Assembly: GCA_951406725.2 (NCBI GenBank)
Contig: OX597834.1
Coordinates: 33,108,001-33,172,000, forward strand
Source of the DNA: Octopus vulgaris
Lineage: Eukaryota
DNA length: 64,000 nucleotides
Reading direction: 5' to 3'
The notes under the pieces were generated by a model. It was not told the origin of the DNA. It was given only the letters and a program-made list of their open reading frames with translations, and searched no databases. Both the position numbers and the translations under genes were made by a program. Position 1 is the stretch's first letter, and every line of letters begins with the position of its first letter. Shown piece after piece: positions 57,982 through 59,545 of this stretch.

Positions 57982-58241
57982 CATACATACATACATACAT
58001 ACACATATATATATAGAAATATTAAAATTACTAAGTCTCTCTAAAGGAGATTACGACAGCGTTACTGGATATTAATATTTATCGCCAAACTAATATGGCA
58101 GTCCATAAATATAAGACTAAAGCTGTCGCTGATTAGCTCCAGGAGGCCATCGCCTCTAACTAGCTATATGACACACGAACCTGCGTCCATTACAACCTTC
58201 GAACAGGGGAGGTCAGCCGCTTCACCTTGCTGGTCAGACAT

Positions 58242-58282
58242 CTGCAGACATGTTTCAGGGTTGTTGCCCTTTATCAATGCAG
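58242..58282 (-). ncRNA. Minimal type I hammerhead ribozyme, mirror copy
   Basis: Exact reverse complement of 58412-58452. Confidence 0.72.
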
Positions 58283-58411
58283 CGTAGTCAGACCCAGCAG
58301 GTGTCGCTACAGACCGTCTGTTCGAAGATTTTATTTATGTATTCCACTGTAACTAGGTAAATAAAATCTTCGAACAGACGGTCGTAGCGACACCTGCTGG
58401 GTCTGACTACG

Positions 58412-58452
58412 CTGCATTGATAAAGGGCAACAACCCTGAAACATGTCTGCAG
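58412..58452 (+). ncRNA. Minimal type I hammerhead ribozyme, U3-A8 variant
   Basis: CTGCA-TTGATAA-AGGG-caacaa-CCCT-GAAA-CATG-TC-TGCAG: 5-bp stem I, 4-bp stem II, palindromic loop III, GUC cleavage triplet. Confidence 0.72.
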
Positions 58453-58623
58453 ATGTCTGACCAGCAAGGTGAAGCGGCTGACCTCCCCTGTTCGAAGGTT
58501 GTAATGGACGCAGGTTCGTGTGTCATATAGCTAGCTAGAGGCGATGGCCTCTTGGAGCTAATCAGCCACAGATTTAGTCTTATATTTATGGACTGCCATA
58601 TTAGTTTGGCGATAAATATTAAC

Positions 58624-58659
<36 letters not shown>

Positions 58660-58764
58660 ATGTATCTATGTATGTATGTATGTATATGTGTGTGTGTATA
58701 GTGCTATTCAAAACGAATGAGCCGATTTCATTACGCAATATTTTAATAAGGAAAAGCAATAGAA

Positions 58765-59155
58765 AACCCCACCTAAGTCCCAAGTATTTACTCATAATCA
58801 CCTCTGCCTCGTAGACAACAGCTCTCGGAGTTGCATCGACTACCTACTGGGCATTTACTGTTAACCCTACACGTGCATCCTACATCTGTGTAAGGTTTAG
58901 GGGCGTTCCTTAAAATCCTTTTTAACACTGGGTGCACAGTGATGGTCCGTTAAGTAATCGTCCGTTCCTTTCCATAAAATGTTTGTCCATTAATCTATGA
59001 AAGATCCTTCCCAGGTTTTGAAAGGTGGCGCAGACCCATTGATCTTATGTGTGCGTGTGCGTGTATGTGTGTCTTTGTATGTATGTGTGTTTGTGCGTGT
59101 GTGTGTTTGTGCGTGTGTGTGTGTGTGAGTGTGTGAATATGTGTGTGTGTGTTTG

Positions 59156-59198
<43 letters not shown>

Positions 59199-59545
59199 TG
59201 TGTGTGTGTGTGTGAGTGTGTATGTGTATGTGTTTGAAGTGTGTGTGTGTTACACTTTCTTTTGTGGGTGTTAGGGCCCCAGCATAAAGGAGATGCAGTC
59301 CTTAAACCCGCTGGTTTCCAAAGACTCATTGTAATAGGGAATCGCAGCGTCGAAAATCTTTTTATTCGAGGACTGATTCGAAATACCCCTACTGATATCC
59401 TTCGCCATGTTCTTAAAACCAATAGGTGTGTGACAGGAGGCTGTGTTTATTGCACGACAGCCTTTCATTTGGTTTGCGGTAAATTCTGGAATGAGAGGTA
59501 CCCAAATCGAGTGTAAAATCTAAAAAGATAACTGTGGCAAGATTG
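58765..59545 (-). mobile_element. Penelope-like retroelement remnant (RT C-terminus and GIY-YIG start), split by (GT)n
   Basis: FLDFTLDL...[15 protein letters not shown]...ISNQSSNKKIFDAAIPYYNESLETSGF; CRVNSKCPVGSRC, then VVYEAEVIMSKYLG. Confidence 0.82.

Follow-up and report, generated by a model that had tools for sequence, protein, structure and literature searches.

Layout of the palindrome and its hammerhead motifs

The palindrome in the window (the whole 64-kb stretch of DNA that was analyzed, from a microsatellite-rich, 2.8-Gb genome) is real, yet it is no special fold-back element. It is likely the product of a single event, one head-to-head insertion made up of two abutting partial copies of a 362-nt noncoding hammerhead repeat, and a decayed fragment of a Penelope-like element (PLE) lies beside it (Table 1). 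The arms, at 58069-58337 and 58358-58625, were identical in 263 of 269 columns, with five substitutions and one gap; an earlier note on this DNA had described arms of ~266 bp at ~98% identity, which was borne out (98.1% over those 266 nt). The same note had placed a 20-bp spacer between the arms and had started the left arm at 58072, and neither point survived. The supposed spacer is element sequence of the right copy, and therefore the two copies abut, with a single base common to both at the head-to-head junction (58337/58338); the left copy begins at 58013, with a tail that is missing on the right. The 3' end of the left copy, which is the long (tailed) end, adjoined a (TA)n/(TACA)n run, and that of the right copy, the short (untailed) end, adjoined (TA)n/(TG)n. 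Four non-majority bases were common to both arms.

Table 1. Coordinates, in the window, of the palindrome, its hammerhead motifs and the adjacent PLE fragment
Feature	Position	Strand	Remarks
Left retrozyme copy	58013..58337	-	325 nt, unit positions 37-361, 5'-truncated
Tail, left copy only	58013..58068	-	~57 nt, unit 306-361
Right retrozyme copy	58338..58625	+	~288 nt, unit positions 16-305
Supposed "spacer"	58338..58357	+	unit ~16-36, right copy only
Type I hammerhead motif	58412..58452	+	U3 58417, C17 58447; predicted cut after 58447
Mirror hammerhead motif	58242..58282	-	U3 58277, C17 58247; predicted cut after 58247
Decayed Hydra-clade PLE fragment	58778..59556	-	protein matches to Hydra-clade ORFs
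Remnant RT end and thumb	59556-59274	-	
Remnant CxCX5C linker	58877-58851	-	
Remnant first GIY-YIG motif	58819	-	
Remnant (TG)n run	~59045-59250	-	frameshifts and stops also present

It is extremely improbable that the palindrome is an assembly artifact (a fold-back read) or a later inverted duplication. PLE inverted structures are known to trouble assemblies (PMC8557442; for this and the other papers cited, statements refer to the accessible text), but here the arms differed at 6 of 269 columns, had their own distinct fixed ends, and each carried private element sequence. Moreover, about half of the family loci were similar in form, and the junction was spanned by one short-read contig, from DNA run X1, which may be the assembly's own sample (58299-58373, 75 nt, with 39 and 36 letters on the two sides, one other letter, depth 21.5). 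No junction-spanning piece was present among those listed for runs X2 to X4.

Each strand carried the motif CTGCA-TTGATAA-AGGG/CCCT-GAAA-CATG-TC-TGCAG, as the earlier note had said. Its parts are a 5-bp stem I that extends outward past an internal loop, a U3-A8 core, a 4-bp stem II with a 6-nt loop, and a palindromic stem III. When the 64 kb were scanned with a type I descriptor, the mirrored pair accounted for both of the matches obtained, with 0 to 1 matches per shuffle in 10 shuffles and one each in the reversed and the complemented window. Rfam gave no hammerhead model match within 58072-58625, the matches listed being only microsatellite and hairpin miRNA look-alikes, and the motif differed from the minimal PLE hammerhead (min-HHR) in its 4-bp stem II, its extended stem I and the absence of an extra base before stem II. 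In a set of 11 related sequences, both sides changed in 6 of 16 pairs, distributed over stem I, stem II and the palindrome of stem III, and none of 500 shuffles reached the covariation score; the compensatory changes come from a sister subfamily about 80% identical to the unit. This covariation supports a ribozyme and, with it, the earlier reading of the U3-A8 hammerhead as a genuine motif.

The description of all stems as intact was overstated for stem III. As drawn, stem III consists of two pairs closed by a 2-nt loop, which fold prediction treats as impossible inside one molecule; the alternative of one pair and a 4-nt loop would cost 5.7 kcal/mol, and pairing between two copies via the palindrome would yield about -6 kcal/mol. 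Cutting is thus predicted to require a hammerhead dimer, as provided by tandem transcripts. Related retrozyme families of ~350 nt had U3-G8 (L008:1900-2000) or C3-G8 (L298; 3991 and 4343 in element orientation), and since these similar hammerheads stand beside U3-A8, three forms of the 3-8 pair occur in one genome.

A family of PLE-type retrozymes

Head-to-tail joins gave the repeat a period of 362 nt, and stops broke all six frames of this unit, which encodes no protein. A search with the arm returned 2,937 first-look candidates; of these, 40 were scored, and those that matched over the full length had 95-98% identity. The exact 39-nt hammerhead core occurred 159 times (control, 0), and a degenerate core occurred 773 times. 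In all, 112 distinct loci were mapped, the window included, 28 by arm match and 26 plus 58 by the exact core, the exact-core loci being drawn from the first 100 of the 159 places; duplicates had been removed from both the family set (6 of 118 loci: L003, L024, L096, L111, L113 and L115) and the sister set (4 of 25 loci). Because the loci were chosen by best arm match or exact core, they lean to young, hammerhead-bearing copies, and the high conservation of the core in the main family was left unused as evidence. Mean divergence from the majority base was 2.5% in the family.

The 112 loci comprised 180 pieces, the longest of 977 nt, and at least two hammerheads in tandem were found in 10 of them, the window locus having none. 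The 3' ends of 145 pieces lay at two fixed sites, unit 305 (short) and unit 362 (long), and TA repeats adjoined 118 of these 145 canonical ends. The 5' ends clustered at unit 160-176 (27/180), on the 3' side of the long ribozyme-containing hairpin. The hammerhead cut site was considered as the end of the template and rejected, since only 6 of 180 5' ends fell at unit 120-135 and 137 pieces read through it.

Features of non-LTR retrozymes include a unit of ~170-400 nt without a protein, a type I hammerhead, head-to-tail repeats with at least two hammerheads, linear and circular monomer RNAs, and self-cleavage, and the first three of these were found. Insertion features of the PLE type were also seen, namely, variable 5' truncation, partial tandems, an inverted 5' copy (57 of 112 loci), an optional 3' tail between two fixed ends, and a bias to (TA)n targets. 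The repeat is therefore very probably a retrozyme of PLE type, with self-cleavage predicted, and the Penelope-like origin proposed in the earlier note for the structure was upheld. A MITE or foldback DNA transposon was rejected, since the junction position and the arm lengths vary by locus and the ends are asymmetric; palindromes of this kind should not be annotated as MITEs or fold-back elements. The window locus itself is ordinary transposon debris. At a single locus (L091), the copy ended past unit position 220 in sequence like the tail of the family at 51116 (see below), followed by a TA run, possibly a template switch between two passenger RNAs.

The family resembles the non-LTR retrozymes of animals (Cervera and de la Pena 2020, PMC7229834; Li et al., bioRxiv 10.64898/2026.07.22.740005) in its noncoding unit within 170-400 nt, type I hammerhead, G+C content below 50%, head-to-tail repeats and likely mobilization by PLEs. 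Unlike them, it consists mostly of dispersed insertions of 0.5 to 2.7 units, half of them with an inverted partner, and it has a U3-A8 core and no parent terminal repeat that we could find. For predicted Xenopus retrozyme dimers, cleavage is reported for 1 of 9 (bioRxiv 10.64898/2026.07.22.740005). With the inverted pLTR/tail structures of EN+ PLEs (PMC3846280, PMC8557442, PMC11167929), the family has in common a head-to-head 5'-truncated copy, a tail on one arm, (TA)n targets and two fixed 3' ends, but here the passenger is noncoding and the tail measures ~57 nt versus their 30-40. The PLE hammerheads of Schistosoma mansoni (PMC4209133) likewise have U3-A8 cores, opposite-strand pairs (100-700 bp apart in that species) and a palindromic stem III that needs a dimer; their minimal type has a stem II of 7-8 bp, whereas the proportions here are canonical, with a stem I of 5 bp plus an extension and a stem II of 4 bp. 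Precedents thus exist for U3-A8 cores, for hammerheads paired on opposite strands and for inverted Penelope-like copies, and an inverted 5'-truncated copy with a tail on one arm has been described (PMC8557442, PMC3846280).

End choice in head-to-head pairs

The 57 loci with an inverted partner held 59 head-to-head pairs, three further pairs with gaps of >15 nt (L118, L124 and L132) being left out of the count, and a hammerhead was present in both arms at 14. By source, such pairs occurred at 14 of the 28 loci found by arm match and at 15 of 26 and 28 of 58 of those found by exact core. Both ends were canonical in 39 pairs (the other 20 had a noncanonical end), and these joined a long end to a short end in 37 cases, a long end to a long end in 2 and a short end to a short end in none, an excess over independent choice with a binomial P value of 1.3e-9. 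Both ends are common alone, since unpaired pieces ended long 29 times and short 20 times (13 had other ends). The same arrangement was read by eye in 6 of 6 strictly canonical pairs of the sister subfamily (21 loci) and, among autonomous elements, in all 7 pairs of young Hydra elements and both Neptune pairs. For EN+ PLEs, the accessible text of the papers cited above terms the tail "optional" or "often at one end"; the rule was counted here. The joining of a tailed to an untailed end in 37/39 pairs and 9/9 autonomous pairs may be new: neither this rule nor a double-priming model was found in the literature searched, which included few subscription papers, and both may be in print. The family's short, young and abundant copies allow counts rarely possible with long autonomous elements.

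The junctions and the arms carried further information. An overlap of at least 2 nt was present at 45 of 59 junctions, compared to 94 of 297 simulated joins (P = 3e-10), and 4 of the 59 were symmetric at a self-complementary site. Divergence was 3.6% between partner arms versus 4.7% to other copies (59 pairs under slightly wider criteria; P = 6e-9), and 71 non-majority bases were common to paired arms where 16 were expected. Among the 37 long-plus-short pairs, one arm was contained in the other in 19 (12 one way and 7 the other), and in 18, the window among them, neither arm was contained in the other.

The best explanation, which we regard as probable, is that these head-to-head partial copies arise in one event, through a PLE reverse transcriptase/endonuclease acting in trans and two-strand priming at two sites; the two-strand, two-site priming, taken on its own, is fairly probable. 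The PLE enzyme would nick both strands of a (TA)n target, and each nick would prime a cDNA on the same RNA, the outer start site giving the long end and the inner site giving the short end. Each cDNA would end prematurely, in many cases at a hairpin base in the RNA; the two 3' ends would then pair over a few bases, and extension of each along the other would complete the insert. On this view, the mirrored ribozymes would be incidental, a result of both cDNAs having passed the hammerhead. Copying of one RNA stretch by both cDNAs would require strand displacement. The arm with the short end extended further 5' in 25 of 37 pairs, as expected if the short-end cDNA leads.

In L1 twin priming, a pair of cDNAs is started on one RNA from two nicks in the target, and a join at microhomology produces an inversion; the internal site at which the second primer anneals varies, and there is hardly any overlap between the pieces. 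The putative process here is alike in its two-nick priming on one RNA and differs in that both starts are fixed. Because these fixed starts lie only 57 nt apart, the arms overlap and form a palindrome, unlike the products of L1. In the one in vitro system described, a PLE protein nicks and extends both target strands, and it initiates at two positions on the RNA, which delimit the tail; hammerhead cleavage is unnecessary (PMC11167929). The end rule would link PLE inversions to these two start sites and yields a prediction testable in the same system; inverted insertions go undiscussed in the accessible main text of PMC11167929, and the origin of PLE inverted repeats is termed undefined in that of PMC8557442.

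Two other mechanisms would produce the same element. One primed strand might fold back or prime itself, on cDNA or on an antisense RNA, with the inverted arm being copied from the first; this was proposed, with an antisense RNA, for rotifer Penelopes from palindromes at inverted junctions (PMC3846280). Such self-priming would directly explain the variants common to both arms, which could also stem from postinsertion conversion between the arms, and it is consistent with the four symmetric junctions and the 19 contained pairs. However, each arm of the other 18 pairs, including that in the window, carries sequence missing from its partner, and the scheme gives no reason why, in 37 of 39 pairs, the copied arm should end precisely at the other of the two fixed sites. 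Fold-back or antisense self-priming therefore fits at most the 19 contained pairs, and as a general account we consider it unlikely. In the second, an asymmetric protein dimer would draw on two templates, either separate RNA molecules or two units within a tandem or circular one, with one subunit always taking the outer site and the other the inner site. The PLE protein is predicted to be dimeric (PMC11167929), strand displacement would be avoided, and 10 pieces contain tandem hammerheads, but the arms match in subfamily variants about 4 times more often than random pairs do. This match favors one transcript, with which two tandem units are still compatible, and makes the dimer scheme quite improbable.

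We somewhat favor, in addition, the broader proposition that PLEs build head-to-head repeats by double priming on one RNA, with start sites never shared and a microhomology join. If this is true, double priming explains why only a single arm bears the tail, and separate second-strand priming becomes unnecessary. The rule was seen here in the retrozyme family, the sister subfamily and two autonomous clades, and the genome would be flooded with hairpins that bury a ribozyme.

Neighboring remnant, transcript hairpins and other fold-backs

The earlier note had reported a PLE coding remnant nearby, and one was found; it lies on the minus strand, as does the left copy, and its end is about 150-170 bp away from the right arm. 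The remnant matched Hydra-clade ORFs with E values of 1e-18 to 5e-23 and 50-59% identity to intact-looking ORFs. The Hydra clade is defined by the CxCX5C linker before the endonuclease, RWK and DKT motifs and RT phylogeny (PMC8557442); the remnant has the linker in common with this clade, and it is decayed and without a terminal repeat. The RWK and DKT motifs were present in a relative (L053, a 50-58% match to the remnant), the corresponding parts being missing from the remnant itself. For the remnant and the Hydra ORFs, one weak GIY-YIG match was all that Pfam yielded.

It is very probable that the remnant is unrelated to the palindrome, contrary to the link drawn previously, and in a region so dense in repeats their adjacency is best ascribed to chance. 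The remnant is old, its best DNA relative being 78% identical, and its relatives carry different hammerheads with C3-G8 cores. The unit had no significant similarity to 53 Hydra or 70 GIY-YIG/Neptune loci, the lone exception among the searched loci being a family copy beside L217, which is an independent copy; the comparison of the arm with PLE termini, proposed as a check in the earlier note, revealed no homologous terminal repeat in these 53 plus 70 loci. A shuffle test of the unit against three termini was not significant (229, 140 and 15 of 300 shuffles scored as high). The only family locus that abuts a coding piece is L087, where the piece is an old Neptune one, and none of the relatives of that piece had a terminal repeat like the unit. 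The search for an autonomous partner covered Hydra relatives, GIY-YIG matches (mostly Neptune-type) and the Neptune relatives of L087, a sample of PLE families.

A young Neptune-type family (L229-L243) with many uninterrupted 781-amino-acid ORFs is a candidate active element. It showed 97.6% mean pairwise identity, TA targets and long and short ends, its 3' region, ~1 kb long, contained short internal repeats, and it had a U3-A8 hammerhead of the minimal type and a tail of ~36 nt; this terminal hammerhead had only the core letters TTGATAA and GAAACATGT in common with the unit. A young Hydra family had a tail of ~65 nt, close in length to that of the unit, and a different hammerhead. Young Hydra-clade families (L051-L065, L203 +200) had a hammerhead-like terminal motif with C for U at core position 4 (variants CCGAAGA, CCGATGA and CCGACGA) and a longer stem III, and in L057 a hammerhead-like motif lay in the 3' untranslated region, about 220 nt past the stop. 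Old Hydra relatives (L044, L058 and L072) had long Asn/Ser/Thr-rich GIY-YIG inserts, like the N-rich inserts reported for rotifer Penelopes.

A read-through transcript of the palindrome was predicted to fold into a single hairpin of -528.7 kcal/mol. In this fold, stems I and II had a pairing probability of 0.000 on either strand, versus 0.78-0.99 in a lone arm. The earlier note had envisaged self-cleavage in competition with double-stranded RNA processing, but cleavage would hardly compete, because the antisense arm comes first in the transcript, and a lone copy has no dimer partner for stem III. The ribozyme is predicted to be silent, buried in the read-through hairpin. If transcribed, palindrome hairpins could feed Dicer or ADAR, and they could plausibly silence the family. 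Genomic copies showed no A-to-G excess (5.3 versus 6.6 per 1,000 for T-to-C). Family sequence, not assignable to this locus, occurred in all four runs guessed to be RNA, whose contigs carry no strand or circle information, and no junction-spanning piece was present among their listed contigs. The word "ribozyme" does not appear in the accessible text of PMC13282606.

These results make it very improbable that the palindrome is, as first read, the terminal repeat of the neighboring PLE or a selected switch in which self-cleavage opposes ADAR/Dicer and silences the family. The proximity and strand of the remnant are in line with that reading, the hairpin would be a strong double-stranded RNA, and small RNAs against Penelopes are known in rotifers and flies (PMC3846280). 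Against it stand the age gap (95-98% identity in the family, at most 78% for the remnant), the other hammerheads of the remnant's relatives and their lack of similarity to the unit, and a remnant endonuclease cut off well short of any terminal repeat. Coding pieces, of mixed clade and age, occurred in just 7 of 112 family loci (4 Hydra and 3 Neptune). Moreover, the stems would be unpaired in read-through, and neither an A-to-G excess nor, among the RNA contigs listed, a junction-spanning one was seen.

Three other fold-backs in the window, at 17592, 21104 and 51116, had been suggested in the earlier note to form a recurring class with the palindrome; they are inverted insertions of three other repeat families in the same one-long-one-short form and not a new class. 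The families at 21104 and 51116 gave 883 and 1,756 candidates, respectively, and in each window copy just one of the two arms was tailed and a single hammerhead-like motif was present. Position 9 was C in 8 of the 9 motif copies seen for 21104, and the motif at 51116 had U3-A8 and a 3-bp stem I. No such motif was found in the window copy at 17592, which is the 3' end of a family whose hammerhead is visible at L008. The repeat at 21104 was considered as the end of a Neptune element and rejected, since at L286 it stands apart as a palindromic insertion of its own within a run of TA. Between the 21104 and 51116 families, the bodies differ, but the tails resemble one another (window 21050-21104 and 51470-51500). 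The window also contains stretches at 59880-60700, 42137-43027, 44113-44613, 47445-47855 and 40001-40680 that we take to be mariner transposase-, LINE C-terminal- and other DNA-transposon-like fragments. At 32294-33856, a SINE-like unit of ~184 bp forms a tandem array at 97-98% identity, with an inverted copy of the unit at 31267-31498, about 800 bp to the left of the array.
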